DNA of 64,000 nucleotides from the NCBI GenBank assembly GCA_963924565.1, contig OZ004613.1:20274001-20338000 (forward strand). Reading direction: 5' to 3'. The notes below the pieces were generated by a model. The model saw nothing but the letters and a program-made list of their open reading frames with translations, had not been told where the DNA came from and did not search any database. Below, piece by piece: positions 22,701-64,000 of this stretch (position 1 is its first letter; every line of letters starts with the position of its first letter). The position numbers and the translations under genes are program-made. Origin of the DNA: Ascidiella aspersa (taxonomy: Eukaryota).

Positions 22701-25199
22701 TTTTCGCGCTTCGATGAAACACATTCCTATATAAACAAAAATTAGGATCTGCCGTTTTTCAAATCTCTGAAACATCCCGACGTTTTGCTTCCAACCACAT
22801 TTAAATCGCCGCAATTTGCTCAGAAAATAATTCATCTTCGTACAGAGTTTTAGGTGAAGAAAAGGTTATCGAAAAAATAATCTCTGAAAAGCTTAGCAAA
22901 AAATATTAAAATTGTGTCGTTTTTCGTGTTTTATGAAAAAACAATAGTGGAGCAAATTGCATCATACTGCCATAAAAGACGACCAGCATCTGAATTTCTT
23001 TAATTACTGACACGGTTACCAGTGCGAGACATCTAGCGCTACGATGTCCCCAGCAGCTCCAGCATCGCAGAAAACAAAACAGTATTTTGTCAGATACTTC
23101 GTAATATAATCGACCAATCTGAACCACTTGCTATAGTGAATCGCACAATGATACTCAAGATCGTTTGACATTCCATACATGAAAGGATGCACTAGCGACC
23201 CGTCAGCATAATCTAGCACTCGAGAAATGACAGTTGGAGTTTAATTGCGCATTGTTCGCAAAGGTAATTGCTTGTTTTGTTAAGCAGTCAAGGTCAGGCG
23301 GTCACCAACCACATAACTGGCTGTTCTTTGTTTCGATAAAGGTCGTAAAGTTTAAAGTACCGATATACGTAAAAACAGTTGTATTGTGTAGCTTTTAAAA
23401 TTACTTACAACCACGTATAAGCTTCCGAACGAAACTCATTTAATGCAATTGAATTAAAAAAATGGTATATTAGAAAAAATGTGTTTCGCTTACCGTTTCT
23501 GTTCTGCCTTGCAGTATAATTTAATTTAGCAGATAAACCGTCATAATTGTTAACTGGCAGGAAAAATGTTTAACTGCGAGTAAAAAATGTGATTAATATG
23601 GTTGCAGTAAATAAAACAAGTTTTCACCGTTTTGTGACACGCTTACATTTAATGTTGTCGCAAGGTGGCGTACATTATCTGAAATGTTTTAAAGCGAATG
23701 AAAGACAGTGATTTTAGCACATCCCTACCAAAGCTATTTACGATTTAATACAAAGATCTTCACAAATTCTTCACAACAAAACCTCACCTGAATTGTCATC
23801 GGACATTAGGATTCTGGGATGCAAGTCTGCCGTGGAAAAGCATTAATTTTAACTCGTACAATGCAACGATAGACAACGAACAAAGAAGCTTCCAAACAAA
23901 TCAATCTTGGGTACTATTGGAGCAAATGATTTCCATTATTCGTTTGGTAAAATAGGATTTAACCAATGTGCTTAAAAAAGGATGAACTAGGATGCTATCA
24001 ATGCAAACACAACAAAATCGTGCACCATATTTGTGTCTCGTTACGTTGCCTAATTACTGGGCAAACGTGAAAGTTGAGAGACTATTCTATATTAGCCTGT
24101 TTATAAAATTGGTTTCAAATTCTCTAAGCTAATCGGAATTAGGACTGCGTTTTTACGATTATAAAATGAAGTCTTTTTATCCGCTACCATTCAAACAAAC
24201 TAAAAAAAGACTGTTTTTTACCATCTTTTACAAAAGAGCTTTGTACAGTCTTACTGTTAAAAAATACTGTTAATTTTACTAAATTCATTGGCAGCAAATC
24301 TACAGACCGTCATTATATAGTTTTTTAGATTTAATCGTGTCCATTGTGAAAGTTAATACGCACGGTTATTGTCGTTGACTTCAAAGTTTGTTCATATTAC
24401 TATGATTTTTGTTATATAATTTAAAAAAGTTTCTGGCATCAAATTAGCATGAGAACCTGTGAACTTTACGGAACATAGGAAACAGTTTTGTTTTTAGAAC
24501 TGTATTCTGGGAGTCACGCACACCGAATTATATGTGATGTTTAAAAGTTTTAATGCCGATAAAAGAAATATTTTTTTCAATCTATTTTAAACAGGCATCT
24601 TTTTTAAGCTTACACAAATTATTTTATGATCCCAGATAAATATGAATAGTGGATAGAAAGTATTGCATTGATTTTGGAATATGTGTAATAACAAATACTT
24701 TTGTAAACGCGATATTATTAGGCGAAACTTTTTGTTGTTGATAGTTTTATAGTAAGCATGGCGCCTTTAGTCTGAAGAAATTCACTCATAAAGACATACA
24801 AGTGCTGCAGATTCGAACAATGTTTAATCAGTTTAATATTTTTTAGACAAAATGCTTGTATCGTAAAAAAAAGGGGCCATTATCTATAATTATACAAGCC
24901 ATAGTGTTTAAAAATAACGAACATTAAGAAATTTTAATTGTTCAGTTTTCGGGTTTATTATCGCATTATTAAAGAATAACCGAACCATTGTTGATATAAG
25001 ATTTCTAAACAATAACTGTGTGTGTGTGTTTTTCATTGAAAACAAAAGACGCTTATAAAAAAATGGTGTGTCGATTTTAAATGTAATCGCTTTCCGTCAG
25101 TCATTTTCTAACTAAAACTAAAGCAATATTTTTGTTTTTGAATTTTTGATTCTGACATATTCTAAGAATTGTTTATCCGCTTTTTAAAAAGTTTCAAAG

Positions 25200-27242
25200 T
25201 TTACAATTAGATGTTTCACAGTCACGCAGATAAATTTAATAATTTATAACGCGCCATTCGATTAAATGTGGCTTCAACAAAGGTTGAAGGTGCACAGTGA
25301 CTCAAATTGTGGCGAAGCATTTCGTTAACCCATTTCAGGGACAATCAGCGAAAATAGTCCAGGGACGACCAACACATATGCTGTATAACAATTTATACTA
25401 CCATTTTTCCATGACCGGCGAAATTCAAAAACCGCATCACATGTTTTAAAATGTCTATTTACCGAACGTGTAGTGCCACGATAGTGCAACGTTTAGGGTT
25501 AAGTAAAATATTAAGGTTTAGGTTTGTTAGTTATTCCCGATCGCTTTACATATCAGGAAATTTCGTTGCGTTGGAGCTGGTTAGGTTAGCGCCTATTTAC
25601 TAAACACTTCCGAGAATGATAGGGCGCAGGAAACACGTATTTGTTAGGGCCGACCATCGCCTTCGCTAAATCACAATGGTGTTGCAACTACAATACTACA
25701 ATGCCCGTATCCTTAAATGGTTTTATTTTAAATGTGCATTTTCACGAACTATTATAGACACAATGCATAATTAACTTTCGGTTACATGCGAAATAGCCAC
25801 AAGTAATTTTTAAATCATCGGCTATAAAGCGAGATATGAGCACATTGAAACGTTGTGGGTCAACATAATAGGTAATGGTGATTAACAGGGAACAACTTGA
25901 TGGCCACCCGAGAACGAGTTGGTACCGGGATTACATATTTGTTTTAAATATGACGCCAATCGACCATTTGCCGCTTTCACACAGGTCGTTTTCAAATAAG
26001 GTCTTACTGGTATTGTTGGAAATCATTTTTTATTTTACACACAATTAGTGGCATAGTGACGATCTGCTTCCAGTGCCATTGTTGTTTTACTATTATACGC
26101 TATCCGATCATTGCGAAATACCCATAAAGCACATAATACAAAATTCATTTTACCTAACGCGTCTCAAGCGAGCGTCGTTGCAACACTCTTGAAACATCGT
26201 CCTGGCAATTTTCACTTTTAAACGATCACGGGTTGCAAACTTCCTTATGGTATGCTATCTCACGCAAAAGTTATCAGAGTTTGCAAAATATCGCGTTTAA
26301 TGCGGTGATTAACAAGTAAGCAATTTTTACTTTTGAACACGATCCTGATTTTTCTTAGATTGTACGCCGGGTTTGCTTAAATATCATAACAGTTGTATCC
26401 CAAGCTTTTCGGGTATTGTAGAACAAACTTTCGTTTTTCCACAAAAACTTTTTTCCACAATTTGACAGTGATTTAAGCTAAAGCCTAATTGCTTCTCATA
26501 GTGGGTTTAACCACTCAAAATTTAGGCAGAGTTCGCAAAATATCGCGTTTATTACAGCGGTTTTAACAGTAAGCAATTTTACTTTTTGGTTCATATGTAT
26601 ACAAAGACTAATCTTGTCTTAAAAGACCAAGAATTGAATTTGATTTTTTACAGTCGCGCGGATAATAGCGATAATAATGCATTCCACGCCGGTCGATTTA
26701 ATGTAGCTTTCATTAACTCAGACTTCATCATATAAGGAGGTATTTTTATTGTGGTAAACCATTAAGTTGGCCCGGTTCACAGGAAAAATCTTTGCGAAGT
26801 TAAGACTTTCGTGCTCAGTGTTTTCAAAACAGTGTGGAATTGTCAGTACTTTGCGGATTAGTTTGTTAATGTTGCGTTTTCAAGCAAAATTCATACTTTC
26901 GTCACGTTTAAATGCAGTGTATTGTCTTATGATAGCCAACGTGGCTTCAGCAAAATGACTACAATTTACTGAGATGTTTATCGCCATGAATTACACTTAA
27001 GGGCGATAGACGTTGGAGGCCATATGTATTACCGCCTCTTTATTAAACCTATACCCGACAATAACATGCAATAGTGATGAAGCGACGACAGTACTATAAT
27101 GGATTGTTTTATTTTGTTTAACCACGCAAATTTCAGATTATAATTTACATATCCAGTATACCTATATCAGTCGTTTATTAATTAGAGTTAGACTGGTATA
27201 TACTTTATATAACCTGGGCAACGCCGGGTATTTCATGTATAG
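25200..27242 (+). mobile_element. Non-autonomous Helitron remnant (left arm of IR1)
   Basis: 3' hairpin-type end cctgggcaacgccgggtatttcatgtatag; body similar to the element at 43848-46701. 5' boundary approximate. Confidence 0.6.
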
Positions 27243-30200
27243 CTTTTATTATGTGACGACTTTTTGCTGTGAGAAGTTTTGGTCGAAAATAATCTATTGA
27301 AACAAAACAAAAAATGTTGTGCACAATTTAATGGTAAAAATACTTTTTATTTGTTTGTAAATTATTTTATAGAGTATAGGTCGGGGGTTCTTAACCAGGG
27401 GTAGGTTTACCACTTGGTGGTACGAAGCACCAAACCAGGGGGTAAGACATGCAGTGTGAAACTATGTGCTATTTACACATACTTCAAAGTGTACGAGCTC
27501 TAAAAAGGTTAAGAAACACTGGTATAGATTGATATACACCTATATAGCTTCATTGCTAACCGCCATAAAGTTATAGGTTTGCCAGTAGAAAACTTGCTTG
27601 GATATTGGTTGGTTTAAGCCGATTTAAAATAATATATTAAATTGGCTTTCTTTGAGATTCACGTTTGTCACTTCACGGGTCCGGGCCCACATCGGGAAAC
27701 GCCAGTATTTTATGGGCACGTCCAAAAATTTACAAAAAATACAGAAAAAACGTAATAGCTGTATCCGGCTTGCAAACCGTGGGTTGGTGACCCTTGATAA
27801 AATTGTTGGACAAAAAGTCGAAAAGATATTACTGTAAGCCCTATTTAATTACAGTTACAAGTAAAAAACAAAATAAGTGCCAAGTAATTTGCAAATGTAT
27901 TTCACTGTAATGCAATCTACGAAGCAAAAAAATAGCCTATACGTACAAAACCTAAATCACGGAGATGGGGCGTTCTAATTAACACAGCAGAAACCTATGA
28001 AGAGCACGAAGTGTAAGAAATAAGAAAGTTTTTGTACAAATTCTGACAAGTGTATTTATTACTGTGCACTTTTCTTCATATGGTGTAGTTTCGAAGAATG
28101 TTTGATCAATTTAAACTTTTGTGGACAAAATGCATGTATCGTAAAAAACTGCAAACAGTCGACTTATTCTATAGCAGAGAATTATCATCATAGGCCCTAT
28201 AAGTTATATAAGCCAAAGTGCCGAAGATTAGAGAACAGTCTTACCAAATACAAAATGAGGAAATTTTAATTGTTCTGTTTTGGTGTTCTATTGCATGATC
28301 AAATATATAGAGAAACCGAAACATTTTTCATTATAGGAGTTCTAAGCAAAGAATTGTGTGGGAATTTCATTGAAAAAGATTGACGCTTAATATAAAATCT
28401 GTATGCCAGTTTTAAATTTAATTGCTTCGCGCCAGTCCTTTTCTAACTAAAAATATTTTTATTTTGATATTTTTGTTTCAGATATATAATAAGAATTGTT
28501 TATCAATATAGCCGCTTTTTAATAAATTTCAAAGTTTGTCTGAAAATCGCCGGACGGCGGTCGACGCCATATGCTCTTTCTAAAGAACTATTTTATTCTA
28601 AGAACTGTTATTCAATATGGCCGTTTTATCGGCTGGTCGTTTCCAACATGTGACATTATTCATATGTGACGACTCTCTTGGTGATAAAAGTTTTGGCCAA
28701 AAAAGTATTTATAGAATCAAGAAATAGAAACAATTTTAGGTAAAATCCAATGGTGACCGTACTTTTTATTTATAGCTATTTTTTTAATTTATAGTATTTA
28801 TAGATAAATCGCCCTTCTGCTGATGTTCCTCATCAGGGTTCATAATCAAAACGAGAATGCGTTAGCCAGTATATATAAGAATAAAAAATAAATAGACTAT
28901 GATAAAAAATAATACATTTAAACGACCCAGAAGTATTTTATTATTATTAAGCCTGATAAGGTCACCTGCTATCTGCTGCCGAAACGTCGGTTTATATTTC
29001 GTTAACACCGGGAGTGCGATTTATATTTTGCACGTTGGGGCTAACTCTATTTGTACTTTTCATTTGTTTGTAAATTCTCTTTAAGAGTGTAGATTGATGT
29101 TCACCTTATAGCTTCATTGCTAGCTGCCATAAAGTTATATGTTTGCCAGTATAAAAGTTGTTCTCGAAACGGTTATTGCCCATGAATACTGAAACAAATA
29201 ATTTACCTGTTTCAATCAATTTAAAGTCCTTAATAGAAATAAATTGTAACTTGAAAGCCACGTGAAGGCTGGAAATATCCTATAGACAACAACTGGCAAC
29301 AACACCGAAATTCGTATATTATGATCGTAGCAACAAAACACCACAGGGGTGCGTACGAGGTCTTGGGTCTCGGGATAAACTACTCGACAAAGTCTTGTTT
29401 AGCCATCGTAGGACTCAGGACTCGGGACTCCAGCAAGATTACGTAAGACAACCTGAGAGTCCCGAGTCCGACGTGCGCATGCGCAGTACTAACATTTGGA
29501 AACTGCTAAGATCATAAATTGTAAATTCTATAAGTGGATTAGCATACGATGAAACTTTTTAAAACAGTGTATTGTGAGTCGAGAGCCGAATTTGGGACTC
29601 GACGAAATCGCAAGTTCTAAACTTCGAGAATTAACAACACATTCTAACCCAAAAGCAAACCACCAAAAGCAACAGCTCAGTGACAAAATGGTGACAAGCA
29701 AACGACAATGCAAGACTGGCCGACGCCAAGATGGTGGGGTTAAATCGTCCCTTGCTATATTTCTACGAATTTAACGTTTTTGGCCATTGTGATATTATAC
29801 CGATCGGTTTTTGACTTATTCTGACTGGCTTAGATCATATTGTGTCGCAGATATTACTACTATTCGGTGTTAATATTTTCGGGCAATATTTTTGCTAATA
29901 TAAAAGCGTTTCTGTATAAATAACGAGGTGTATGTTAAAAGTGAATAAAATTTACTCTTTAGTTCTCGTGGAAATGTTTTCACAAGCGTAAACTAAATTT
30001 CCGTTCAATAAATATTCTGCCTCGTCGCGATGAAAAAGTCCAACGACTCCAAATTGTTTATATTTTATGCTTCACGAAAAAACCCTCCAGCAAAATTTCT
30101 CCGGCAAATAACAATTTTTTTTAATGGTAAAAAATGTTATTTTAACTAGGTCTTATACCCTTTTAACCAGGCCATCTCTCCATAGTCTTAAATGTATTTC

Positions 30201-30561
30201 AACCTAGATTCTAGTTGCATGTTTGTGTACTACGTCGAACTATAACTTAAGGCTTGGTTTGAGTGGCTTGTTTTAAACTCCCTGTTATAACAAAATTTTG
30301 TGACGTCATTTATCGTTTTTGGTACAAAAATTATTCTATTTTCACCACTTGCTGGATAGTCATATGCGATTAAACTAAACTTGACTGTCCCGCGGTTGGA
30401 ATCTAGAACATTGACAACATATTTTGTTTAACGTTTAACGCTATGAGGTCCAATAAACCGACTTGTGTAATATTTTCGTTCCTTGAAAATTTATGGATCA
30501 CAAATCAAACGAAATTGCTTTCAAATTTTATTATACTTTGCAGTATATACCAAATATCAAC

Positions 30562-30971
30562 TTAGTGATGCTGTTGATCCATCTCGTTTAACATTTCAAC
30601 ATGTTCTTGTGCCTCTTCTGAGAACAAGTCTTTCATATCTAGAGAGTTGTCTAGTCGAGAATCCTCTTCAGACATCTTCTCATTATCTGTCCAAACATTT
30701 TTAGACGCATCAAATTAATAAATTTTAATTGGATAAGTAACTTTAAATTAACTTGCAACCAGAACAACCGCAATTATTTATGAACTAAAATAACCATAAA
30801 AATTCGAAACGTATGTCCTTTATCAGACACAAAAAATAACTAACTTGCACTATCGTAGCGCCTTCGGGAGTAGTACCTTCTTCTTCGGCTCAACCAATGG
30901 AAGAGAAATGCGTCAACATTTGCGGTGGAGATAACCAAAACCAATAGCAGAAGCAAGCAAAGTTTGTCCAT
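30562..30971 (-). CDS. Secreted Trp/Arg/Tyr-rich peptide precursor, copy A (putative antimicrobial peptide, 83 aa); coding exons 30971-30845 and 30686-30562
   Basis: MDKLCLLLLLVLVISTANVDA-FLFHWLSRRRRYYSRRRY-DSANNEKMSEEDSRLDNSLDMKDLFSEEAQEHVEMLNEMDQQHH*. GT-AG phase-1 intron; 5'UTR intron 31122-30972; TATA 31173-31179; AATAAA 30527-30532. Confidence 0.88.
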
Positions 30972-31122
30972 CTAAAAGTACAAAAAATTTCAGTTATATA
31001 AATTGAAAACAACAACATTAGTGGTTATTTGTTAGAGTTAACATAAACTTAAATAATAGTATAAAAAAGTTACAAAAACTTCTGTTATCTCTGTGATTCA
31101 CGAAGTGTCTCATCTAACTTAC

Positions 31123-31345
31123 CTTGAAGTGCTGTTGCAAGTCAATAGTGCCAGATTATAGCTATGCCCCTTTTATATAACGCTGGCGCAGCTGTTCAAA
31201 TTTGTTATTGGCTGGAGAAGGGTTTTTCCGTGAAGCATATAAGGTCAACAATTTGGAGTCGTTGGACTTTTTCATCGCGACGAGGCAGAATATTATTGAA
31301 CGGAAATTTAGTGTTACACTTGTTAAAATATTTCCACGAGAACTA
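31123..31345 (-). promoter_or_regulatory. Copy A promoter and non-coding exon 1
   Basis: CAGCTG followed by TATATAA (31173-31179); donor AAG|gtaagt at 31123/31122; same layout in copies C and D. Confidence 0.7.
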
Positions 31346-33639
31346 AAAAATAAATTTTATTCACTTTGAACATACACCTCGTTATCTATACAGAAACGCT
31401 TTTATATCAGCAAAAATATTGCCCGAAAATATTAACACCGAATCGTAGTAATATCTGCGACACAATATGATCTAAGCCAGTCAGAATAAGCTAAAAACCG
31501 ATCGTTATAATATCGCAATGGCCAAAAACGTTAAATTCGTATAAATATAGTAAGGGATGATTTAACCCCATCATCTTGGCGTCGGCCATTATTGCATTGT
31601 CGTTTGCTTGTCACCATTTTGTCACTGAGCTGTTGCTTTTGGTGGTTTGATTTTGGGTTAGAATGTGTTGTTAATTCTCGAAGTTTAATTCTACGCGATT
31701 TCGTCGAGTCCCAAATCGGCTCTCTATAGCCTATATTTCACCCAGTAAGGTAACCAAAGTAAGATGAGTATTCAGCAATCCACTCACTTGGGTTTAATAT
31801 AACTCATCGACTCACAATACACTGTTTAAAAAAGTTTTATCGTATGCTAATCCACTTTTAGAATTTATAATTTGTGACCTTAGCAGTTTCCAAATGTTGG
31901 TACTGCGCATGCGCACGTCCGACTCGGGACTCAGCTTGTCTTATGTAATTTTCCTGGACTCCCGAGTCCTGAGTCCTACGATGGTAAAGCAAAGACTTTG
32001 TCGAGTAGCTCATCCCGAGACCCGAGACCGCGTACGCAGCCCTGTGGTGTTTTGTGGCTACGATCATAATATACGCACTCCCGATGTTAACGAAATATAA
32101 CCCGACGTTGCGGCAGCAGAAACCAGCTGACCGCATCAGGATTAATAATAATTAAATACTTCAGCGTCGTCTATAGATGGATTATTTTTTGTCTATATAG
32201 TCTTTTTGTTTTTTTACTCTTATATATACTGGCTAACGCATTCTCGTTTTAATTATTAATCCTAATGAGGTACACCAGAAGAGCGATTTATCTAGAAATA
32301 TATAAATTAAAAAAAAATAGCTAAAATAAAAATTACGGTCACCATTGGATTTCACCTAAAATTGTTTCTATTTCTTGTTTCTGTAGATTATATTTTGGCC
32401 GAAACTTTTGTCACCAAGAAAGTCGTCACATATTAATAATGCCACATGTTGGAAACGACTGGACGAATAAACGGCCATATTGAATAACAGTACTCAGAAT
32501 AAAACAGTTGTTTAGAAAGAGCATATGGCTTCGACCGCCGACCGGCGATTTTCGGACAAACTTTAAAATTGATTAAAAAGTGGCTATATTGATAAACAAT
32601 TCTTAGAATATATCTGAATGAAAAATTCCAAAACCAAAATATTGCTTAACTTTTAGTTAGAAAAGGACTGACGAGAAGCGATTAAATTGAAAATCGACAT
32701 ACAGATTTTATATAAACGTCTAGTTTTTTCAATAAAAGCATACACCCATAATTATTTGTTTAGAACTTCCATAATGAAAAATGTTTCGGTTATTCTATAT
32801 ATTTGATCATGCAATAGAAATCCAAAACTGAACAATTGAAATTTCCTAATTTTGTATTTGGTAAAACTGTTCTTTAATCTTTGGCACTTTGGCTTGTATA
32901 AATGATCAGGCCTATGATGAAAATTCTCACCTAAAATAAGTCGACTGTTTGCAGTTTTTTACGATACATGCATTTTGTCCACAAAAGTTTAAATTGATCA
33001 AACATTCTTCGAAACTACACCATAAGAAAAAAATTGCACAGTAAAAATACACTTGTCAGATATTGTATAAAACTTTTTTATTTCTTACACTTCATGCTCT
33101 TCATAGGTTTCTGCTGTGTTAGTTAGAACGCCCCATCTCCGTGATGCCAATTACTTGGCACTTATTTTGTATTTTGCTTGTGACTGTAATTAAATAGGGC
33201 TTACAGTAATATCAACTTTTTGTCCAACAATTTTATCAAGGGTCACCAACCCACGGTTCGCAAGCCGCATACAGCTATTATGTTTATACTGTATTTTTTA
33301 TAATTTTTTTGAGGTGCCCATAAAATACTGGCGGTCCCAGATGTGGGTCCGGACCTGTGAAATAATCAATGTGAATCTAAAAAAACGCCAATTTAAAATA
33401 TTATTTTAAATCGGTTAAAACAAACCAAAAGCCAAGCAAGTTTTCTACTGGCAAACCTATACCTTTATGGCGGTTAGCACTAAATCTATTAGTGTATGTT
33501 AATCTTTACAAGGGTTTCTTAAAATTTTTAGCGCTCATACCCTTTGAAATATGCCTAAACAGCACATATTTTACACTGCATGTCGTACCCCCTGCTTTGG
33601 ACCAAAATTCTCACACCAAAAATCGTCAAATAATAAAAG

Positions 33640-35700
33640 CTATATACATGAATTTCCTGGCGTTGCCTACGTTATATAGAGTATATACCAGTCTAATTCT
33701 AGTTAATAAACGGATGATATAGTTATACTGGATATGTAAATTATAATCTGAAATTTGCGTGGTTAAACAAAATAAAACAAGCCATTATAGTACTGTCGTC
33801 GCTTCATCACTATTGAATGTTATTGTCGGGTAGGTTTAATAAAGAGGGGGTGAAACATTTGGCCTCCAACGTATATCGCCCTTAAGTGTGATATATGGCG
33901 ATGCACCTCTCAGTTATTGGAGTCATTTTGCTGAAGCCACGTAGGTTATCATAAGACAATACGCTGCATTTAAACGTGAAGAGGGTATGAATTTTCCATG
34001 AAAGGGCAACACTAACAAAGTAATCCGCAAAGTACTGACAATTTCGCACTGTTTTGAAGCACGGAGCATACAAATCTTACTTTCACAAAGGCAAGACTTT
34101 AATTTGATTTTTACGAATACGAAATAGCTGCGTCTAACGCCAGACAAACCCGTCACCCAATTAAAATAAAAATTGCTTACTGTTAAAACCTTTTCAATAA
34201 ACGCGATATTTTGAACTCTGCCCAAATTGTGTGCGGTTAAACACACTATATAAAAAGCCAATAGGCTTGGCCTAAATCAGTATCAAATTGTTAGCGGGAA
34301 GGTTTGTTGGGCGCTATCCGTGTAAGTTTCCTAGTGGCTATTAAAAGTATGTTTAGAATACGACCGGTGGCGTGTAATAGCAGTCCTATTTGTCCGACTT
34401 GTGTAGTATTAAAGCAACCCGTAATCCCGGTACCAAATGGCGAACGAAGTAAGAAAAAATCTGATCGGACTTTAAAATTACATCTGCTTGCTATATTTTT
34501 CAAACTTTCAATTTAACGTGTGCTAAACATACTATAAGAGCTAAAAGTTCTAAAATTGTAAATTGTTAGACGATGTTTAAACCCCAAACTATAATCCAGG
34601 TATTTACGGAAAGTATATTATAATTGCACACTGTTTTGAACACCCCGAGCATGAAAGTCTTAACTTCGCAAAAATGATGACTTTAGTTTTTGTACCATGC
34701 GTAAAATTATGTAACCAAAAAGTAAAGTTGCTTAACTGTTAAAACCGCTGTAATAAACGCGATATTTTGCGAACTCTGCCTAAATTTTGAATGGTTAAAC
34801 CCACTGTTAGAAGCCATTAGGCTTTTGCCTAAATCACTGTTAAACTGTGGAAAAAAGTTTTTGTGAAAAAATGACGTTTGTTGTACAATACCCGAGTAAG
34901 TTTAGGATACGTTTTATATATGTGTTTCATAGCAAAACAGTAATGGCACTCGCAGCTGGTCGTCCCTATGCCGCTGATTGTGTGTGAAATAAAAACAATA
35001 TTTTCCCACAATACCGGTAAGACCTTATATGGAAACAGCCTGTGTTTCAAAAAACGGCAAATGATCGATTGGCACCATATTTAAAATAAATATGTAATGC
35101 CGCGGTGCCAAATCGTTCTCGGGTGGCCATTAGGTCGTTCCCTGTTAATTGCCATTACATATTATGTTGATAGACAACGTTTCAATGTGCTCATATCTCG
35201 CTTTATAACCGATGATATAAAATCTACTAGTGGCCATTTCGCATGTAATCAAAAGTTAATTATGCATAGTGTCCATAATAGTTCGTGAAAATACTCACTT
35301 AAATAAAACCGTTTAAGGATGCGAATGTTGTAGTATAGTAGTGGCTCCAACGCAACGAAATTTCGTGATATGTATAGCGATTGGAAGTAACTAACAAACC
35401 TAAACCTTATTTTTTTATTTAACCCTAAACGTTGCACTGCGTGGCACTACACGTTCGGTAAATAGACATTTTAAAACATTTGATGCGGTTTTTGAATTTC
35501 GCCGGTCATGGAAAACTTGTAGTATAAATTGTTATACAGCATATGTGTTGGTCGTCCCTGGACTATTTTCGCTGATTGTCCCTGAAATGGGTTAAAGAAA
35601 TGCTTCCCCACAACTTAAGTCACACCTTTAACCTGTGTTGAAGCGGCATTTAGTCGGATGGCGCGTTATGGCATTTATCTGCTTGACTGTGAAACTTCTG
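33640..35700 (-). mobile_element. Non-autonomous Helitron remnant (right arm of IR1, mirror of 25200-27242)
   Basis: Reverse complement of the left-arm copy; similar to 43848-44400. Confidence 0.6.
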
Positions 35701-37044
35701 ATTGTTCGTCTTCGTAAACTAAAATTTCCATAAATTTAATATTTTGTAATATGTAGCCTTGTAATGTTGTGTGTTTAGTAATATTGTGCGTTGGTCTGTC
35801 TGCCTCTTTAAGTTTACATGCCAGCGACCGAATATGCCGTATCGCCCAGCTAGTCGTTGTTAAACACGTCAAAATACCAGGTGTTTAGCATAAAATCGTT
35901 CAGGTGTTTATAATTTAACACCAACACTAAAATTAAACACAAAGGTGTTTAAATTAGGTGTTTAAGTGTTTAGATTTTAAACGTGTATAGACCGTTTTGG
36001 TGTTCAGATTTAAAAACCGTTCTACTTATACAACAGTATAAGCTAAGTTGTTCAGTCTTTCTCGTAATTTTTATTTTGTCTGGAGCATATGACTTGCTTT
36101 CTCGGCAAACATATGGCGTCGACCGCCGTCCGGCGATATTCGGACAAACTTTGAAATTTATTAAAAAGCGGCTATATTAATAAACTATTCTTAGAATATA
36201 TCACAATCAACAATTCCAAAAAGATAATATTGCTTTAGTTTTAGTTAGAAAATGATTGACGGAAAGCGAATACATTGAAAATCGGCATACGAATTTTTTA
36301 TGAGCGTCTTTTGTTTTCAGTGAAAACCACACACAATTCTTGTTTAGAAATCTTATATCAACAACAGTTCGGGTATTCTGTCAATTTTTGCAATGCGATA
36401 GAACCCGAAAACCGAACAATTAATTTTTTTAATTCTGTATTTGGTAAGACTGTTCGTTATTCTTAAACACTATGGCTTTTATAACTATAATAATAGCCTA
36501 TGGCGAAAATTCTCTTCTAAAACAAGTTGACTGTTTGTAGTTTTTTTTTTACAAGCATTTTGCCTAAAAAATATTAAATTGATTAACGTTGTTTGAATCT
36601 ACATCACTTAAAGAAAATTGTACAGTAAGAATGCCCTTTAACGACATATACACTTGCCAGAGTTTGTACCTAACTTTCCATCCGACCCGCCTCCTATTTT
36701 ACAAAGTATGGGTACGAGGCCATTTCCCATATTGTTTAATTCTTTTGATCTAATTAAACCTTTAACAGCGGACTTCGTAAAATTAACATGAAGAAATCTA
36801 ACAACTATATAATGACGGTCTGTAGACTTGCTGCCAAAGAAGTTAGTAAAATTAACAGTATTTGTTTTAACAGTGAGACAGTACAAAGCTCTTTTGAAAG
36901 AGATGGTAAAAAACAGTCGTTTTTGAGTTTGCTTGATTGGTAACGGATATAATATTTTATTTTATTATCGCAAAAACGCAGTCCTAATTCCTAATAGCTG
37001 AGAGAAATTTAGACCAATTTCGTAAATAGGCTGATATAGATTTT

Positions 37045-46701: not shown

Positions 46702-46908
46702 TGCATAACGATAATCTGGCACTATTGACTTGCAATAGCACATCAAGTTAAGTTAGATGAGTGACTTCGTGAGAGTTGACAAAGTCGTTGTCACTTTTAT
46801 TTATACTGGTAATTAGGTTTCTGTTAAATCTAACAAATGACCAGTATTGTTGGTTTTTCAATTCAAAAACCTGAAACCCATTTTGTAAGTTTAGAATCTA
46901 AACTTTAG

Positions 46909-47316
46909 ATGGACAAACTCCGCCTATTTCTGCTATTGGTGTTGGTTGTCAACGCCGTAACTGTTGACGCGTGGTGGCACTATTGGTATACCCGAAGAAG
47001 GAGACGCTGGGATGGTGAAAGTTAGTCGTATTTTTGTTTATGATAACAACAGACGTTTCGTAATGTTATAATTGTTATTTTAGTTCAAACACATCCCAAG
47101 TTGTCCTGGTTGCATGTTAATGAAAAGTTACTTAAGTTTATCCAATTAAAATATGGTAATTTTTTTGCGTTTAAAAATATTTTAACAGTTCATAAAAATA
47201 TGTCCAAAGAGGATGCTCAAATAGAGAACTTTCTAGATACGGAAGAAGACTTGCTGCCAGATGAGGCACAAGAACTTATTGAAATGTTCAACGAGGTGGA
47301 TCAACAGCATCACTAA
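46909..47316 (+). CDS. Secreted Trp/Arg/Tyr-rich peptide precursor, copy B (putative antimicrobial peptide, 79 aa); coding exons 46909-47020 and 47189-47316
   Basis: MDKLRLFLLLVLVVNAVTVDA-WWHYWYTRRRRRW-DGEIHKNMSKEDAQIENFLDTEEDLLPDEAQELIEMFNEVDQQHH*. ORF and coding splice sites are intact; AATAAA 47346-47351; promoter interrupted. Confidence 0.82.
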
Positions 47317-50300: not shown

Positions 50301-51293
50301 CATTAACCTATGCTGCTTGTTTTCGCACTGTCTCGCGTGAAAACAGTAAGTCCCTTTATAAAAAATAAACGTTGTTGTGTAATTTCAAGCACGTAAAAGC
50401 TTCCAGTTCACATTAAGCGTATTCAATTCATTTTGTTTAGTATCGAAAAAGTTTAATGAAAAAAAAAGTTGTTATCGAAAAAGTTTGATGCCACGAATGT
50501 TGGGCTTAATCGAGATTTGGGCTTTATGTCGCATTACGCCATATAACACGCTTCACTACACCCAGCGCACTTTTAAGCGCAGACCTCGAGTAATTAGTGT
50601 TTGTTTTTTTGGTCAGTTGCACACGTCTTTGCGATCATGTGCCTGTGGATATAATATACGTCACCACTCTTATCGCATTTTATTCACGCGTGTGTGTACG
50701 CTACAATAAACAGAAATCAGTTTAGGTCACTCGGTGTCTGCGTTTTGACCGCCCTGTTCGACAAGGCCATCAGTTTCACAATAATGCAGCCAACCAAAAA
50801 ACATTCATGCTTGCAACAGAGCAGTAGAAACTTCCCTAGACTGCGCCCCACTGTGACATAAAGGATGAACGACGCTGATAAATAATATTTTTGTTTTAAA
50901 ACTGATTTTCTTAAACTCCTATGAACATAATATTATTTTTACTTTAAAATATCTATTTCCACTTAAACATTTAAACCAGAATTGGCAAGTTTGTTACAGA
51001 GGGCGGCATGAGATACAATGTTTTTGGTAAAACGTTATGTAACCGCGCAAAAAATCCTTTAAACCGAGCCAAATCATACTAGGTCTACAAGGTTATACAA
51101 GATTAGCTTTTAGTGTAGAATTCATAAAGCCGTTACATATAGCGTTTTAAGTTTGTCTATGTTAGCAACAAATGAGAACGAGCACCTAAGCACTTTCAGA
51201 GTGACGTAATACATTTCAAAAAAATAAGGTATACTTCGGTTTGCCTAATAAATTAATGATAAATAAAAAAACACAAATCTAACGACCTATAAC

Positions 51294-51488
51294 CACGGTT
51301 CTTAACAACTTATAACAGCGGTTATTAATAAAACTCTTCCTTCGCGCTTCGCGCGACCGACAGCAAACTTCACTATTTTCAAGTTGTCTTAGTAATATTT
51401 AATTGAAAATGCCGGTTTTCGTGCGGGGGCCCAAGGCATATGAATATTACGAAAGCGGGCGCGACTAAAAAAGGGTTAAGAACCAGTG
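51294..51488. mobile_element. Small hAT-type MITE
   Basis: Imperfect TIRs cacggttcttaac / gttaagaaccagtg. Confidence 0.45.
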
Positions 51489-52469
51489 GCTTATAAAAAT
51501 TGGACACTTTTCAAAATTGCTTATAACAGCCGATGGCAGAGAAGTTGTTTAGGTTTCGGACATTGACCTTCTTGCTTCTGGAGTTCCAATGAAAACGCAC
51601 TCCTTTAATGAAATCTCTTACGTTGCTTTTACAGTGCCCCTTTGTCGCGTATTAAGTCTGTACAACCAGGGTCGTTTTAACCAAGTCATTTTTAGGAAAT
51701 ATCGCTACCGCTAGATAGTAGTACAGAGCTAAGCGGTTGTTGTACAATTTGACATGGGTTGTTTTACAGAGCCTTATTTTCATGGGTGCATCAATATTTG
51801 CGTCATTATAAATAAGGTTATTTGCCAGGTTAATTCATGTATTATTACACATTACGCTTTACTTGGTTTTAGGGTATATATTAAGTGATATTTTCCTCTG
51901 ACTCGTTTGTGCAAGCAAAAAAATATGGGACAAGTTTCCAGCCTTCACTTATGACATAGATGCAACATTTATTTTAATTTTTTGTTATATCCTACTTAAA
52001 AAGTAAGCCTAATAATTTCTCGGCAGTATTTACTACCAACTCCATCCAAAAAACAATATCACAAATTTTTCTTATAATTCATTTAGCCTACATAAAGAAA
52101 TATTATAAAATTTATTGTTTTTTTGTTCACATCGACCAAAAAAAAAACATTTTAAAAAATATTCTTATAAATCAACTTTTTGTATTCAATTGCCATAAAA
52201 CCACACAATTTTTATTTGTTTTCACCTAAAAAACAAACAAGGAATTCGCAGTATCATATTTTGATGGTTTATTAGCTTTTAAAAAATAGCACAGTGGCAA
52301 ACACAGCAAAAGAAGTTAGATTACGATACATTACTACCGCTAAGTAGGGGTAGAGATCTTTAAATAACTTGACATCACATTATTTAACGGCGAAAATATA
52401 CGACCCACTCATAATTTTGAACTCGTAACACAATTATTATATTAAATATAAATTTTAAACATGAAAGCC

Positions 52470-52868
52470 GAATCTTCGTGCGAATGGTAACCTTGAATGT
52501 ACTAATTCCATTCCCAACAACATAGGAGTGTGAATCTGCATTTTCGGCACTACTTTTCATTAAGCCAAAGGCTAGAAACCGTTTGGATGCGATTCATGGA
52601 GGGTTGCGTTGTCCATAACGGAACCAAACATAGCCGAGCAGCGAGCTAATAGCAAAGAAGCAAGTGCATCCGCCCTATTGATACCACTAAAAACAACGTG
52701 TTATTTTGTGTTTATTTGTGTATATTTTTAAGTGGACCGTGAGCGTTTCTAGGGGACCGCTGCGTAATTTTTTTAAAAAAGTTTAAGAACCACATTGGTC
52801 TAAGGAGAATACAAAGCTTTGGCGTAATCTGTTTTCTTGCAATCATAGTGCACGTTTGGGGACCGCTG
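52470..52868 (+). mobile_element. hAT (Charlie/Buster-like) transposon 3' remnant
   Basis: Translation from 52493 is LNVLIPFPTT*ECESAFSALLFIKPKARNRLDA, a hAT C-terminal dimerisation motif with a stop; ends in TIR-like gtttggggaccgctg. Confidence 0.8.
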
Positions 52869-53341
52869 GGATAAAGTTTCAATGCGTATAGGCACCATAC
52901 CGCTTCCATACCGCCAAACCAGTTTTTTTTACTAGGTCCTTTTATTACCAGGCCATCCATTCATAGTCTCGAATTTATTTAAACCTAGATACCATTTGCA
53001 TGTTTGTGTACTACGTTAAACGATACTCTTATAGGCTTTCTATATGTAGGTTGCTTGTTTTAAACTCCCCCTAATAACGTAACTTTGTCATCTCAATTTT
53101 TTTATTGTTTTGATAAGAAAATTATTTTACTTTCACCCCTGCTCGATAGTCATATGCGATTAAACCAAACTTGACTGTCCCAGTTGGAATCTAGAACTTT
53201 GACAACGTATTAAGTTCAACGTTTAACGTTTAGTAAATCGCGGTGTGTAAAAACTGGGTACCTTGAAAGTTTATGCAACACAAAGAAAACGCCATTGCTT
53301 TCAAATTTTATTATACTTTGCAGTATATACCAAATATCAAC

Positions 53342-53747
53342 TTAGTGCTGTTGTTGATCCACCTCGTTGACCATTTCAACAAGTTCTTGTGCCTCCTCTG
53401 GCAGCAAGTCGTCTTTCATATCTAGAGACTTCTCTAATTGAGAATCATCTTCAGACATCTTTTCATTATCTGGCGAAACATTTTTTAAACGCAACAAATT
53501 ACCATATTTTAATTGGATAAACTTAAGTAAGTTTAAGCTAACATGCAACCAGAACAACCGTGAATGTTTTTGAACTATCAGACACAAAAATCGACTAACT
53601 TGCAACATCGTAGCGCCTTCTGCGATAGTAGTAGTAGTACCTTCTTCGGGAGTAGTACCTTCTTCTTCGAGAGTACCACCACCATGCGTCGACATTAACG
53701 GTGGAGATAGCCAACACTAATAGCAAAAGCAAGCAGAGTTTGTCCAT
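53342..53747 (-). CDS. Secreted Trp/Arg/Tyr-rich peptide precursor, copy C (putative antimicrobial peptide, 91 aa); coding exons 53747-53600 and 53469-53342
   Basis: MDKLCLLLLLVLAISTVNVDA-WWWYSRRRRYYSRRRYYYYYRRRRY-DVANNEKMSEDDSQLEKSLDMKDDLLPEEAQELVEMVNEVDQQQH*. 5'UTR intron 53890-53748; TATA 53940-53946; AATAAA 53307-53312. Confidence 0.9.
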
Positions 53748-53890
53748 CTAAAAATACAAAAAGGGTTTCAATTTTTTTTAAGCAACACTACTAGTCATCT
53801 GATATATTTAACACAAACTGATTAAAAGCACAAATAAAAGATGCAACAACTTCTGTTAACTCTGTGATTCACGTCACTCATCTAACTTAC

Positions 53891-54100
53891 CTTGAACTGC
53901 AGTTGCAAGTCCGTAGTGCAAGATCATAGCTATGCAACCTTATATAACGCTGGTGCAGCTGTTCAAATTTTAGGGTTCTCCCGTGACGCATAAAAGGTAA
54001 ACAATTTAGAGTCGTTGGACTTATCCATGGCGAGGAGGCAGAATATTTATTGAAAGGAAATTTAAAGTTACCCTTGTGATAAAATTTCCACGAAAACTAT
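53891..54100 (-). promoter_or_regulatory. Copy C promoter and non-coding exon 1
   Basis: CAGCTG plus TATATAA (53940-53946); donor AAG|gtaagt at 53891/53890. Confidence 0.7.
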
Positions 54101-57100
54101 TGAGAAAATTTTATTTACTTTTAAAATACACCGATTTATCTAAATACAGAAACGTTTCTATATCGGCCAAATTGTTGCCTGAAATTAATAACACCGAATC
54201 GCAGTAATATCTACAGCAAAATTGTATCTAAACCAGTCAGAAGATGCCTCAAACACATCGGTGTAATATCTCAATGGTCCAAAGACGCTAAAACCGTAGG
54301 AAGATAGTAAGGGACGATTTGATGCCCCCATCTTGGCGTCGGCCGTTTTGGTATGCGAGTCTCTATTTTGGCACTGGACTGTTGCCTTTGTTTGTGTTTT
54401 GGGGTTTGAATGTTTTGTTCAGTTTGGAAGTTTAAATCTTATTTCTTACTATAACCTTATTCCGACTGTCAGGTATAAGTCCTATTTTTGTTTTAGTGTG
54501 AATTGTATTTTACAGGGCTGCGGACCTGCGGTGTTGGCAAAAAGAAATTTTACAATTGATCCAACTCTGCTGGGGTTTAGTAGAACTCATCGACCCACAA
54601 TACACAGGTACAACATAGTTCACCATATGCTTTTCCACATTTTCAATTAACAGTTTGCGACCTTATCAGTTTAAAAATGTTGGTACTGCGCATGCGCACG
54701 TCGGACCCTGGACACAGGTAGTCTCACGTAATCTTGCTTGAGTCCCAAGTCCTGAGCTCGACCATTGAAAAACAAAGACTTCGTCGAGTCCCTAATCCCA
54801 AGACCAAGTACGCAGACCTGGTGTTTCATTGCGACTTTTATGTTAGGCGAATTTCGGTTTTGATGCCGCAGTTGTTCTCTATAAGACAGTTCCAGGCTTC
54901 TTGTGGCTTTGAACTTTAGATACTTCTATTGGGAACTTCAAATTGATTGAACTAAGTAAATTATTTATTAGTATTCATGGGTAATAACCGTAAACTTTTT
55001 ACTGTCAAACATATAATTTTATGGGGGTTAGCAACGAAGCTGTTGGGTGTACTGTACATCAATCTATACTCTAAAAACGAATTTACAAACAAACGAAAAG
55101 TACATTGACGATTAAACTTAACTTAACATTGGTTTTATTTTGTCGTTTCTATGATTATCTATGGACTAAAAATATTCTAACCGAAAAAGTTGCCACGTCT
55201 TAATAATACCACATGCTGAAAACGATAAGCTTAAGAAACGGCTATATTGATGAGAATTCTTAGAATTTGTCAGAATCAAATATTCCAAAACCAAAAAATT
55301 GCTTTAGTTTTAGTTAGAAAAGCCGTGACGGGAAGCGATTAAATTTAAGATTGGCATACGGATGGAAGTGTCTATTTTTTTCAATGAAAACACACACACA
55401 TTTTTTGTTTAGAACTCCCGTATCAACAACGGTTTGGCTACTTTATCTATTTGATCATTCGATAATAACTGAGGTCGATTTGAAGAAAAAGCGACACAAA
55501 TGCAGTGCGAAGTGCGAAAAACTCGCGTCTATTTCGTTTAAAATGCAAACTGGGGCTGTAGTTTGCCCAGGTGTGGCTTAAACTAAAGATAAACAAACTT
55601 ATTTCTTCGCATTCTTATGTGCTCTCAACAAAAAATAGCTGAATTGATTTAACTCGACTAAAGTTGCTTCTTTACGATGTTTTCTAACATTATAACAGTT
55701 AAAAGTTACACCTACCAATTAAGCACCCCTAAATCCGTTCCCGGGTGTGTTATACCAAGTGACACGCTGTTTTTTTACAGGAATCTTTCGAGTCGAAGCG
55801 GGTAAATCATGGTTCAGTTCAAACTATATACCCTACTCATTTTATGTCTTCGTTTTTTATATAATCTGCTTTTATTATTCGCATGTAATTCTTGATACGC
55901 TTCGCTTTATATATCTGTCATCAATTCGCCATAAACCAAGCGATCCTTCCGAATATTAATTTCGTTCTACGGGCAAATTTGTTACTTTTTGGTTTAAAAT
56001 TCAAGCTTTCATTTAGAATGTATAGATGAACAAGACGCATAAAGAACAGATGAATATAAATCTCGTAAAATGGTAGCCTATTAACTATTGGGTTAAAATA
56101 TGTCAATCTTGATGTTATAAGAGATTGTATGTGGTCGATATACTAAATTTTGTTATAGCTTAATGACGGAATACATTCGATCAAAGCGTAAAAACTACAT
56201 TTTAAAATTTTAATTTTTTAACAGTACAGAGGGCGCTTTTAGTTTCTTAAGGTGTCAAAAGTAAAACATATTCGGAAGACAGCTGAGATTGGCGAATCAC
56301 AAAACTCCATTTATGTACTTTAGACAAGCAAAAAATAAAGTTTAGGGCGGCATGCCTGGATCAGGTCCTGGTAAGCCCAGTAGTGGTCCACGAGACAATT
56401 TTCAGTGGGATATGGAGCTCTTTGAAAATCTTGTTTGTATATAATTTAATTTACTAAATATAGTGTGCCCGCCAATAAATATTATCGACCGCCGACTATT
56501 TGGCGGGTTTCTGTAGATTATTTTTTGACTAAAAGTTTTCACACCAAGAAAGGCGTCACATATTGATCATAATGGCCCATGCTGAAAACGACCAGCCTTA
56601 AGAAACGGCTATATTGATAAACAGTTCTTAGAATATGTCCGAATCAAATATTCCAAAAACAAAATATTGCTTTAGTATTAGTTAGAAAAACCATGACGAG
56701 AAGCAAACAAATTAAAAATCGGCCTATGGATATTATATAGAAGTGTCTATTTTTTCAAGGAAAATGCACACACAATTCTTTGTTTAAAACTCCCGTATCA
56801 ACAACGGTTCGGCTACTCTATATTCTATTTGATCATGCAATAGAACCCGAAAACTAAACAAATAACATTTCTTAATTTTGTATTTGTTAAGACTGTTCTT
56901 CAACCTTAAACACTTTGGCTGGCACAACTAATAAAGCCTATAGTGATAATTTATTTCCTTCCTAAAACCAGTCGACTGATGACAGTTTTTTTTTACGATA
57001 CAGGTATTTTGTCCACAAAAGATTAAATTGACTAAACATTGTTCAAATGAAAACCACATGAAGAAAATTACACAGTAAATTACCCTTTAACAACAAATAC

Positions 57101-60100
57101 ACTAGTCGGAGTTGGTACATAACTTTTTTAATTCCTTGCACTGCTGTGTTAATTACAACTCCCTATTTTCCTGATTTAAGATTTAAAGGAAGACTGTTTT
57201 TGCTTCTTATGAAACAGTGCAATAATATATATCTGCAATTTTTTTTGTTTTACTCGTATGTTAACAAATAGAGCTTAAGGCAATGCAGTTAATTTCCTTT
57301 TAACTTTTTGTCCAACAAAGTTATCTAGGGTCGCCAACCCACGGTCCGCAAGCCGCATACAGCTTTTATAATGTGTTTATGATTGTTTGGACCGACAATA
57401 TAACTTTGCCCAGAAAATACACCCCGTCGTCCAGGTAGAATAGAGTCACAAACCGGCGCGGATTTAAGGGGACAATCATGTTGCATCAACTCTCAAAATT
57501 TTATGTTAAATTGGCATGGCACGTCACGAAAAAGTTTAGTCGGAACGTAACGTAACAAAGCAGGCATTTTCTCGAGACCAGCTGTTCTTGGATCTTCCCA
57601 TGAGCAAATGGGCAACTTCATAGGCTGAATAAAAGAAATAGCTATTCGATTTATGCAGGTGTACTCAACTGGCGGACCCCGATTCGGGTCCGGACATGTG
57701 GAGTGTTGAACGTGATTCTCAAAGAATGCCCAATGTACTAAAAAATATTTAAATGTGGTACGATTGAATGACATTTTCGACGAACTTGCTAAGAGGCATA
57801 TGACCATTGACCAACCCTTAAGCAGAAAGGCCGCATTGCCACACAAATTTTGATGAGCCGCCAAACCCATTAAATTAAAGGAGACGACGTCATAAGTTAC
57901 GTGATATTGTGACGTCATAAAAACAACTTAACATATAAACACCCGCTCTTCCAGTGTGAAGTCGAGCGCAAATATGCACGTAAATGTCGGCCTAGTTTAA
58001 AGTAGTTTAGGAAACGCTGTTGGCCACACTGCTATAGGTTTCTTTCATTATTCTTGATCGGACTACGACGTGGCCCGCTTTGCTGAATTAGCCTAAGACC
58101 ACCTTTCGTGAGGCCCACAGTTCTTGAACAGTTGACATGACGGCAATTTATAATTAAACCTTTTACTCAAACAATATAATCAATTTGTCACGCAGACGTC
58201 AAATAATGCACTCGGCCGAAACAAAATATAAAATATTGTTCAAAAATGCAAACATTCCGATGTTAATATGACTTACAAACAGTTTTATGTATCCATCTTG
58301 TATGGTACGTGTATTGGTTCTACACTGTCATAAAATAAATCTTGCGATGACTTTAAGTTACACGACAAATACCAAATACATAGGTCGATTTAAAATGTTA
58401 AGGAATTTTGTGTGTTAAGTACATTTATTATTTAATGCTGTTGGGCATTCAAACTATAGTTGACAAACCTTAAGATATTTAGCCTGCTTCTGTATTATAT
58501 CATCCTCCACATCTGGATAATCCTTATGATAAACATTTTGGTAATTCTTTTATATGAATACTTTTGCACAGCGTCAAAATTTCCAAAAAAGTGCTGCTTG
58601 TTTCACACCGTCCTAATTAAGGTTTACCCATATCCAAGGAAAACGAATTAATTGTGTGGTTAACCTGACGCGTGACTATACTCGTCAGAATATTCGTGTC
58701 CCTGTCGCGCGCCACGTATTGTCGCCCTACAGGCAACAGTTTGAACACCACTGGTTGAATGGGGTATTTAACAGATTTGTAATAAAGGCCCAATCGAATC
58801 TTAACATTCAAAATGTGCGCAAACGCTTGGTATAGTGACAGGGTTATATAAACACTTTCGCATCGTTTCAGAAATATATTTTTCATTCTCAGCAAGGAAA
58901 ATAGCTGATGCAAAATTACAGTTGTATAATAGGAGTTTTACTTTCTATGGTATAACTGATTTATAAAATATTAGTCCCCAATTTTCTGTAATTGGAGACA
59001 TTGTTTCACAGCGGGGGTCGCACTTGCTGGTTGTACGTGACATTTATAGACATAATTTATTAACAGTATAGTTTAAATATATCCACTTGGTTGAATCGAA
59101 ATCTTTAAAAGGTTCATTTTTCGCGTTTTATGACTAATGTTCACGGAACAAATAAGTATTAGTCTACAAACATTTCGTTAGGATGTTTTGCAATAACATT
59201 TGTATGTTTTCTGTAAAACAGCGCCTTTTTCCAGAGAAACAAAATTTTAATTTTTACCCTACTTATATGGGCCCTTTTTCACAATAAAATTTGGGTTATA
59301 TAATACAGTATATTGCTAATGTTTGTAAGCCCAACTCAGTAAATTTGCATAGGTTAACTATAAATACATTTTGTCATGTTGATTGCAGCTGCGGAGCTCA
59401 ATAACAAATTGAGACGTCACAATATCACGTAACTTATGACGTCGTCTCCTTTAATTTAATGGGTTTGGAGGCTCATCAAAATTTTTAAAGTGGCAATGCG
59501 GCCTTTCTGCTTAAGGGTTGGTCAATGGTCATATGCCTCTTAGCAAGTTCGTCGAAAATGTCATTCAATCGTACCACATTTAAATATTTTTTAGTACATT
59601 GGGCATTCTTTGAGAATCACGTTCAACACTCCACAGGTCCGGATCCGAATCGGGGTCCGCCAGTTGAGTACACCTGCATAAATCGAATAGCTATTTCTTT
59701 TATTCAGCCTATGAAGTTGCCCATTTGCTCATGGGAAGATCCAAGAACAGCTGGTCTCGAGAAAATGCCTGCTTTGTTACGTCACGTTCCGACTAAACTT
59801 TTTCGTGCCGTGCCATGCCAATTTAACATAAAATTTTGAGAGTTGATGCAACATGATTGTCCCCTTAAATCCGCGCCGGTTTGTGACTGTATTCTACCTG
59901 GACGACGGGGTGTATTTTCTAGGCAAATAAGCAAAGTTATATCGTCGGTCCAAACAATCATAAACACATTATAAAAGCTGTATGCGGCTTGCGGACCGTG
60001 GGTTGGCGACCCTAGATAACTTTGTTGGACAAAAAGTTAAAAGGAAATTAACTGCATTGCCTTAAGCTCTATTTGTTAACATACGAGTAAAACAAAAAAA

Positions 60101-63578: not shown

Positions 63579-63984
63579 ATGGACAAACTCTGCTTGCTTT
63601 TGCTATTAGTGTTGGCTATCTCCACCGTTAATGTCGACGCATGGTGGTGGTACTCTCGAAGAAGAAGGTACTACTCCCGAAGAAGGTACTACTACTACTA
63701 TCGCAGAAGGCGCTACGATGTTGCAAGTTAGTCGATTTTTGTGTCTGATAGTTCAAAAACATTCACGGTTGTTCTGGTTGCATGTTAGCTTAAACTTACT
63801 TAAGTTCATCCAATTTAAATATGGTAATTTGTTGCGTTTAAAAAATTTTTCGACAGATAATGAAAAGATGTCTGAAGAGGATTCTCAATTAGAGAAGTCT
63901 CTAGATATGAAAGACGACTTGCTGCCAGAGGAGGCACAGAAACTTGTTGAAATGGTCAACGAGGTGGATCAACAACAGCACTAA
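63579..63984 (+). CDS. Secreted Trp/Arg/Tyr-rich peptide precursor, copy D (putative antimicrobial peptide, 91 aa); coding exons 63579-63726 and 63857-63984
   Basis: MDKLCLLLLLVLAISTVNVDA-WWWYSRRRRYYSRRRYYYYYRRRRY-DVANNEKMSEEDSQLEKSLDMKDDLLPEEAQKLVEMVNEVDQQQH*. A|gttagt...cgacag phase-1 intron. Confidence 0.9.
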
Positions 63985-64000
63985 GTTGATATTTGGTGTA

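Follow-up and report, generated by a model that had tools for sequence, protein, structure and literature searches.

How did a cluster of peptide genes in the ascidian Ascidiella aspersa come to point alternately one way and the other? The cluster lies in a 64,000-nucleotide window, positions 20274001-20338000 of contig OZ004613.1 (C7 below) in a 309-Mb assembly of 75 contigs (GCA_963924565.1). There is no N gap in the window or in the 110 kb of flanks that we fetched. Coordinates are those of the window, and positions above 64000 are window-equivalent. Along C7 the units are named U0 (unit 0, with no gene on its strand), A-E and F-H; genes A-D are predicted to encode small secreted cationic peptides. 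The initial annotation of the locus saw the same multi-kilobase upstream region five times with alternating polarity, and proposed that repeated inverted duplication drives birth and death of the family. We consider a different history reasonably probable: two independent inversion-with-duplication events hit a mixed peptide-gene array that had head-to-tail members.

Self-BLAST recovers homologous upstream blocks with polarity + - + - + near the positions first reported, at a level that chance does not explain (E = 0). At 39696/39697 the upstream region of A meets that of B with zero spacer, C and D stand head-to-head with 1.5 kb between them (57917-59412), and B and C are tail-to-tail, all as first described. 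The blocks are not one region in five copies, however. U0 and A share ~5.0 kb and C and D ~4.0 kb, U0/A and C/D have 1.8-2.5 kb of upstream DNA in common, and B shares far less, with 0.9-1.35 kb of its 4147-bp upstream region common to any of the five other units. A serial fold-back or breakage-fusion-bridge chain would have each unit mirror its neighbour across the junction between them. Here only two of the four junctions are mirror centres, and A/B and B/C are not mirror images (75-82%). Alternation also fails as a rule for the whole array. Five alternating units have p = 1/16 under random orientation (simple arithmetic), and a sixth unit, E (+), follows D outside the window and ends the pattern. 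D-E, F-G-H and a gene pair on contig C9 are all head-to-tail, so direct duplication also built the family.

The unit phylogeny, a check proposed in the initial annotation, runs contrary to a chain: the neighbours A/B (75-80% identical) and B/C (80-81%) are the most distant pairs. Promoter identities are 94.2% for U0/A, 94.7% for C/D and 93.3% for C/E, and 75-80% for B or A against the rest; B is 75-78% identical to U0/A and 79-82% to C/D. Pair identities are 82.8% for A/C, 82.1% for B/D and 96.2% for C/D. On promoter sequence the units group as (U0,A),(B,(E,(C,D))) with supports of 100, 98 and 95; on the gene tree, (C,D) has a support of only 74. Two deletions set C and D apart from B and E: one of 2.1 kb in the flank, 70 bp from where the arm ends on its outer side, and one in intron 2. 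The two mirror-image pairs, palindrome P1 (U0 and A) and palindrome P2 (C and D), differ in age, with arms ~87% and ~97% identical.

The left arm of P1 is U0 (23654-30117, +), an upstream region that ends ~17 bp before the expected TATA site and has no same-strand gene. The spacer (30118-31197, -, 1.08 kb) is gene A, running from its TATA box into a 3' flank that breaks off at a run of A/T (at 30117). The right arm (31198-39696, -) is A's upstream region, with ~2.3 kb extra at 37.0-39.3 kb. The junction first placed at ~30090 is thus near, with the left arm ending at ~30117 and the right arm beginning at ~31198. The arms have 86.8% weighted identity over 4872 aligned bases; ~13% apart and with kilobase indels, they appear too divergent for alleles. 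A's promoter is continuous with its gene as in C, D and E, and U0 stops just before TATA. At 39697, the exact end of the right arm, B's locus-specific upstream module is cut, and 39696/39697 would be a new junction. U0 had been described as a unit whose gene is missing. Its TATA box and exon 1 are indeed absent, but loss of a gene is not required. One event that duplicated upstream DNA and flipped the gene gives the identical map, so the missing gene need not be a death. On our favoured reading P1 gained no gene and lost none, and A is U0's own gene, flipped.

P2 consists of a left arm with gene C (52854-57916, -), a single-copy spacer of 1.5 kb (57917-59412) and a right arm with gene D (59413-64471, +). 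The upstream regions of the pair had been placed about right at ~53.9-57.9 and ~59.4-63.4 kb; P2 reaches on past the window end to 64471. Behind D lies an intact element resembling a miniature inverted-repeat transposable element (MITE; 64457-64817), followed by E. This element, which we take to be of hAT type, is also intact downstream of E. In each of these places its two ends are present along with a target duplication of 8 bp; the copy at C's outer end is cut ~15 bp inside its terminal repeat. A dispersed repeat of ~190 bp (57808-57999) runs whole across the edge between the C arm and the spacer at 57916/57917 and is cut at 59413 in the D arm, so the former edge would be ancestral and the latter new. 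The last 46 bases of the spacer match a segment of B's 3' flank (48187-48232, +), inverted at 59413-59368 and identical at 40 of 46 positions (57.2 bits, against a maximum of 34.6 in 100 shuffles). This single match suggests that the spacer flipped together with C. We rejected a dispersed repeat as the source of the match: a search with the spacer end returned one match, itself, although that search is insensitive and missed the 46-bp partner.

The P2 arms differ at 140 of 5033 aligned bases, and unevenly: 50/3240 (1.5%) in the inner part versus 90/1793 (5.0%) in the outer part (p = 5e-12). The core exons of C and D (53604-53684, 63642-63722) fall in a 273-bp tract without mismatch. As the uneven divergence of the arms would lead one to expect, gene conversion between the inner arms likely followed the duplication.

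Judged by cut repeats and modules, the new junctions are 30117/8, 39696/7, 52853/4 and 59412/3, and each flipped segment (30118-39696 and 52854-59412) is bounded by two of them. Outside these segments U0, B, D and E all lie on the plus strand. Both palindromes read as a duplicated arm around a flipped single-copy core, which is gene A in P1 and is continuous with C in P2. The starting point would be an ordinary head-to-tail array of peptide genes. In the older event X-U0-G-Y-R would become X-U0-[G' U0']-R, with a second copy made of the upstream DNA, gene G (now A) inverted without being copied, and Y lost. In the younger event, after the D/E split, L-S-U-R would become L-[U' S']-U-R, with an entire unit duplicated (the birth of C) and the 1.5-kb spacer flipped. 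Each event could be two template switches in replication, or staggered breaks. The C9 gene pair, arranged a-b-c-a'-c, needs copying and so favours template switching over cut-and-flip, which makes template switching the likely mechanism. Inverted duplication as a driver therefore stands in part: it happened twice, while a serial fold-back or breakage-fusion chain is unsupported. Birth and death of the family, as first proposed, are both visible, in the addition of C by P2 and in decay at B and at a copy on contig C2.

Both proposed mechanisms have published counterparts. The four-point template-switching model includes the events 3-1-2-4, 1-3-4-2 and 3-1-4-2 (PMC5453318); P1 corresponds to 3-1-2-4 and P2 to 1-3-4-2 or 3-1-4-2. 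The likeness lies in a single-copy spacer that is inverted and flanked by an inverted repeat, in the possible loss of sequence between switch points and in two new junctions per event. Unlike those events, which copy tens of bases, the fragments copied here would be 6.6 and 9.6 kb, and there is no reference allele to fix the switch points. Fork stalling and template switching (FoSTeS) and microhomology-mediated break-induced replication (MMBIR) are named as kilobase-scale template-switch mechanisms in PMC4689423. Staggered breaks gave inversions with inverted breakpoint duplications in Drosophila (17 of 29 inversions; PMC1885836). P1 and P2 would likewise be inversions with an inverted duplicate at one or both breakpoints, but the duplications, 5.1 and 6.5 kb, are longer than the flipped core (1.1-1.5 kb) and longer than those in Drosophila.

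Several points weigh against two such events. Their direction is read from cut repeats in the present sequence. Microhomology at 39696/7 and 59412/3 is just 0-1 bp, and the junction at 52854 falls within the terminal repeat of the MITE-like element, where the cut could instead stem from later transposon turnover. At 23653/4, the left edge of P1, no repeat runs across, so the ancestral state of that edge is assumed. The 46-bp match has six mismatches (p = 0.002 at 2.8%, 0.03 at 5%) and is separated from C by 4.6 kb of partly old repeats; it may be the relic of an older lost unit, not a breakpoint copy. The scale is that of neither published counterpart: the four-point model was built for base-pair-scale events (PMC5453318), and the Drosophila breakpoint duplications are <= ~1.9 kb (PMC1885836). 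Finally come the read and assembly data (X1-X3 and X6) at the P2 centre. Contigs from X1 and X2 reach past 59412/3 with 25 aligned letters, below the 31-letter rule applied. No X6 read is listed as spanning that junction, and X6 depth is 1-3 at 59045-59389. Among the 15 arm sites listed, X6 has nearly all C letter at 9 of the 13 C/D differences.

The P1 map is equally given by whole-unit duplication with central deletion. Whole units would have been duplicated in inverted orientation, by fold-back or 'drift' duplication, and their centres later trimmed by one-sided deletion, U0 having truly lost its gene. Central asymmetric deletion is described as a stabiliser of long inverted repeats (PMC1803023), and an X3 contig (depth 3.45, likeness 90) runs from 58802 straight to 59648, its shorter side being 65 letters, and so omits 845 bp across the P2 centre. 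However, this history needs an extra event that deleted exactly the stretch from TATA to 3' flank, and by itself it does not explain a single-copy 1.5-kb spacer ending in inverted B-type flank. We hold it to be possible but clearly less probable than two inversions with duplication.

P2 might also be older than it looks, with C and the ancestor of D and E arising from one inversion, D and E later separating by tandem duplication, and arm conversion making C and D resemble sisters. The 46-bp match is 87% identical, like D/E, arm identity is uneven, and between 62494 and 62693 there are 11 sites with C=E≠D against 3 with D=E; the low gene-tree support for (C,D) points the same way. Yet the two deletions shared by C and D are absent from E, and in 13 of 15 bins no other class has more sites than C=D. 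We regard an older P2 as improbable.

Mis-assembly, named at the outset as what would undo the array, can be weighed for P2, where read depth and junction-crossing contigs were examined over the spacer and one arm; contig depth is a rough measure. C and D would then be two alleles joined by the assembler, and P1 alone would be real. The arm/spacer depth ratio is 2.2 in X1 (46.3/20.8; two contigs), 1.7 in X2 (~107/64; length-weighted over the listed contigs, with two allelic ones counted once) and 1.4 in X6 (8.7/6.3; 30 bins, of which 15 in the arm and 12 in the spacer were kept and 3 dropped as repeats). The X6 ratio is low enough to suit a false duplication, as is its near-exclusive C letter at nine sites, and the inner arms, 1.5% apart, differ less than an X1 spacer contig does from the window (28 differences in ~1310 bp). 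Against it stand the arm depth of 1.7-2.2 times the spacer in X1 and X2 and the gap-free sequence. X1, X2 (25 letters) and X3 (65) contigs join the spacer to the D arm. X6 also carries both letters about equally at 4 of the 13 listed differences, mostly where depth is ~2x. The X6 letters fit a polymorphic or converted D arm and leave some room for artefact, but depth ratios and junction-crossing contigs together argue against mis-assembly, and we rate a false duplication as more improbable still.

[quoted passage not shown] ODIRA in particular gives an equal-age inverted triplication (PMC4689423), whereas U0/A are 94% identical with B at 75-78%, and C/D 95-96% with B at 79-82%. Short interrupted inverted repeats of the ODIRA type were not clear by eye, no dedicated scan being made; the spacers measure 1.08 and 1.50 kb.

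As a class, the duplication mechanism is known and ordinary, and inverted members are common among linked animal duplicates: across six animal genomes, ~20-40% of the duplications that stay linked are inverted (PMC3194840). In C. elegans, paralogue palindromes are pairs around long inverted repeats for which conversion was proposed (PMC1803023). Unlike such linked inverted duplicates, P1 has a gene as the spacer between two copies of its own upstream DNA. The mouse Mup class B array, an alternating gene/pseudogene array that repeats one head-to-head pair in tandem (PMC2533699), resembles the present cluster in its alternating orientation, head-to-head pairs and pseudogenes. We rejected pair repetition of that kind here: same-strand genes of the successive pairs are not sisters, and A-B and C-D do not go back to a single copied pair. 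As a control, we took 16 blocks of 50 kb from the same genome. In two of them there is a local tandem array, and in 13 no chained inverted repeat exceeds 1.2 kb. The two arrays are unrelated and have units of ~2 kb and 5.4 kb, each with one reversed member. Near-perfect inverted copies in one further block were set aside as rDNA with assembly gaps; at that locus (C5:26.00-26.05 Mb) the ~7.4-kb units flip orientation mostly at gaps of 200 N, which likely reflects scaffolding.

Unit B has a history of its own. Its truncated upstream region (39697-43844, +) includes an element with 127-bp inverted repeats at 40744-42847. A dispersed transposon-like insertion of 2.86 kb (43845-46700) separates its TATA box (43837) from exon 1, and a near full-length copy of this insertion, 92-94% identical, lies on contig C8. 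Gene B (46701-47746, +) keeps an open reading frame at 46909-47316, but its first splice donor is changed from GT to TT at 46748, and RNA depth over B is 0-0.03 in the RNA run X7. B is therefore likely a decaying and silent copy, and it likely decayed separately from the inversions, through transposon insertion and splice-donor change. DNA depth of X6 over B (46590-47625) is low, at 3.1 and 0.4 against ~6.3 expected (1936 Mb/309 Mb), and depth is partly low in X2. B may thus be absent or divergent in some individuals. The B-C interval (48233-52853) is repeat-rich, with old dispersed elements (78-84%) and one young one (98%); this mixture of ages led us to reject the interval as one young insertion.

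The family comprises at least 12 copies on three contigs. By sequence reading, gene A (-) has its TATA box at 31179, ATG at 30971 and a stop ending at 30562, and gene D (+) has these at 63380, 63579 and 63984. Gene C (-), read from sequence and RNA, has TATA at 53946, ATG at 53747, an intron at 53599-53470 and a stop ending at 53342. In A-D exon 1 is short and, to judge by TATA box and donor, non-coding. The second exon encodes a hydrophobic leader and an Arg/Tyr/Trp-rich core of 13-25 residues, and the last exon a tail of 40-41 residues that is acidic. The cationic core ranges from 13 residues (B) up to 30 (E) as units of 18-24 bp are gained and lost. Outside the window, unit E (~67858-70996, +, ATG 69707) lies head-to-tail with D. 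Between D's flank and E's truncated upstream region is a retrotransposon-like remnant (64899-67857) with segments that resemble reverse transcriptase by eye. A second subfamily without the coding intron includes F, G and H (100-117 kb, all -, mutually head-to-tail), two direct copies at C9:6011114-6023059 and one on C2 with an in-frame TGA, and is scattered as multi-kilobase blocks of 84-94% identity. The C9 copies are 99.7% identical over 3.8 kb and enclose 1.17 kb of upstream DNA copied in inverted orientation, with a 21-nt filler at one junction and ~3-bp microhomology. A distant paralogue at C7:14.08 Mb has the intron layout of the cluster and a core that includes Lys, Pro and Val. In X7, 421 reads splice out 53470-53599 on the expected strand, at a place where C, D and E are indistinguishable; over 1100 further reads match C only partly and resemble the second subfamily.

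Each upstream region carries a module of 150-530 bp about twice (self-BLAST: 24.9, 28.3, 32.6, 36.2, 39.7, 40.6, 55.2, 56.6, 60.5 and 61.9 kb). Among 40 candidates scored, long matches are confined to this cluster, on which ground we rejected a transposon as the identity of its 300-500-bp form. The module is a candidate cis-regulatory element. The window also holds exons of an aryl hydrocarbon receptor gene (1253-5663, -; bHLH at 5268-5510), with best named matches in Ciona and Clavelina; it is transcribed away from the peptide cluster, ~18 kb off. A GC-richer segment at 12979-13780 has frames that look, by eye, like a broken LINE-type 3' end, and has no Pfam match.

Database searches gave the peptides no family. 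A protein homologue search with the C9 peptide found none of 186 candidates at E <= 1. A profile search of 1.84 billion representatives gave two matches, of which the one examined is a repetitive protein matched by composition. None of four peptide queries passed a curated Pfam cut-off, and Babuvirus_MP was rejected at 18 bits against a cut-off of 27. By title and abstract opening we found no paper on the locus or the family, in a search that reached few subscription papers. The linear cationic antimicrobial peptide (LCAMP) precursors of Ciona, Ci-MAM and Ci-PAP (PMC7387483), are similar in layout: a signal-like N-terminus (judged by eye here, with no predictor run), a cationic core ending at an acidic residue and an anionic tail, in 72-90 residues, inside the class range of 50-100, without Cys after the signal. 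They differ in that Arg/Tyr/Trp make up 61-92% of the core here, arranged in blocks. LCAMPs have a cationic amphipathic alpha-helix; the hydrophobic moment of the core here is modest (11-residue maximum 0.26-0.45 on an Eisenberg scale, not the HeliQuest screen of the LCAMP paper). The signal consensus also differs by eye from the Ci-MAM or KH.S921.1 type, and no sequence homologue was found. By analogy, the peptides may have an antimicrobial role.

A bolder view, which we think doubtful, is that the peptide family is a hot spot of kilobase-scale template-switch inversions (P1, P2, C9) whose palindromes are kept and used. A would then be a cassette that can invert, held between duplicate copies of its regulatory region; the P2 arms would trade sequence, individuals would differ in their copy number or centre length, and palindrome dynamics would tune peptide dose. 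Short of that, the locus is a natural case in which repeats mark the junctions, and in which kilobase-scale template switching can be separated from unequal crossover within one family. It also teaches that a gene that looks missing may have been flipped. The peptide family, expressed and with no homologue found, is a lead for work on ascidian host defence or on tyrosine-modified peptides.

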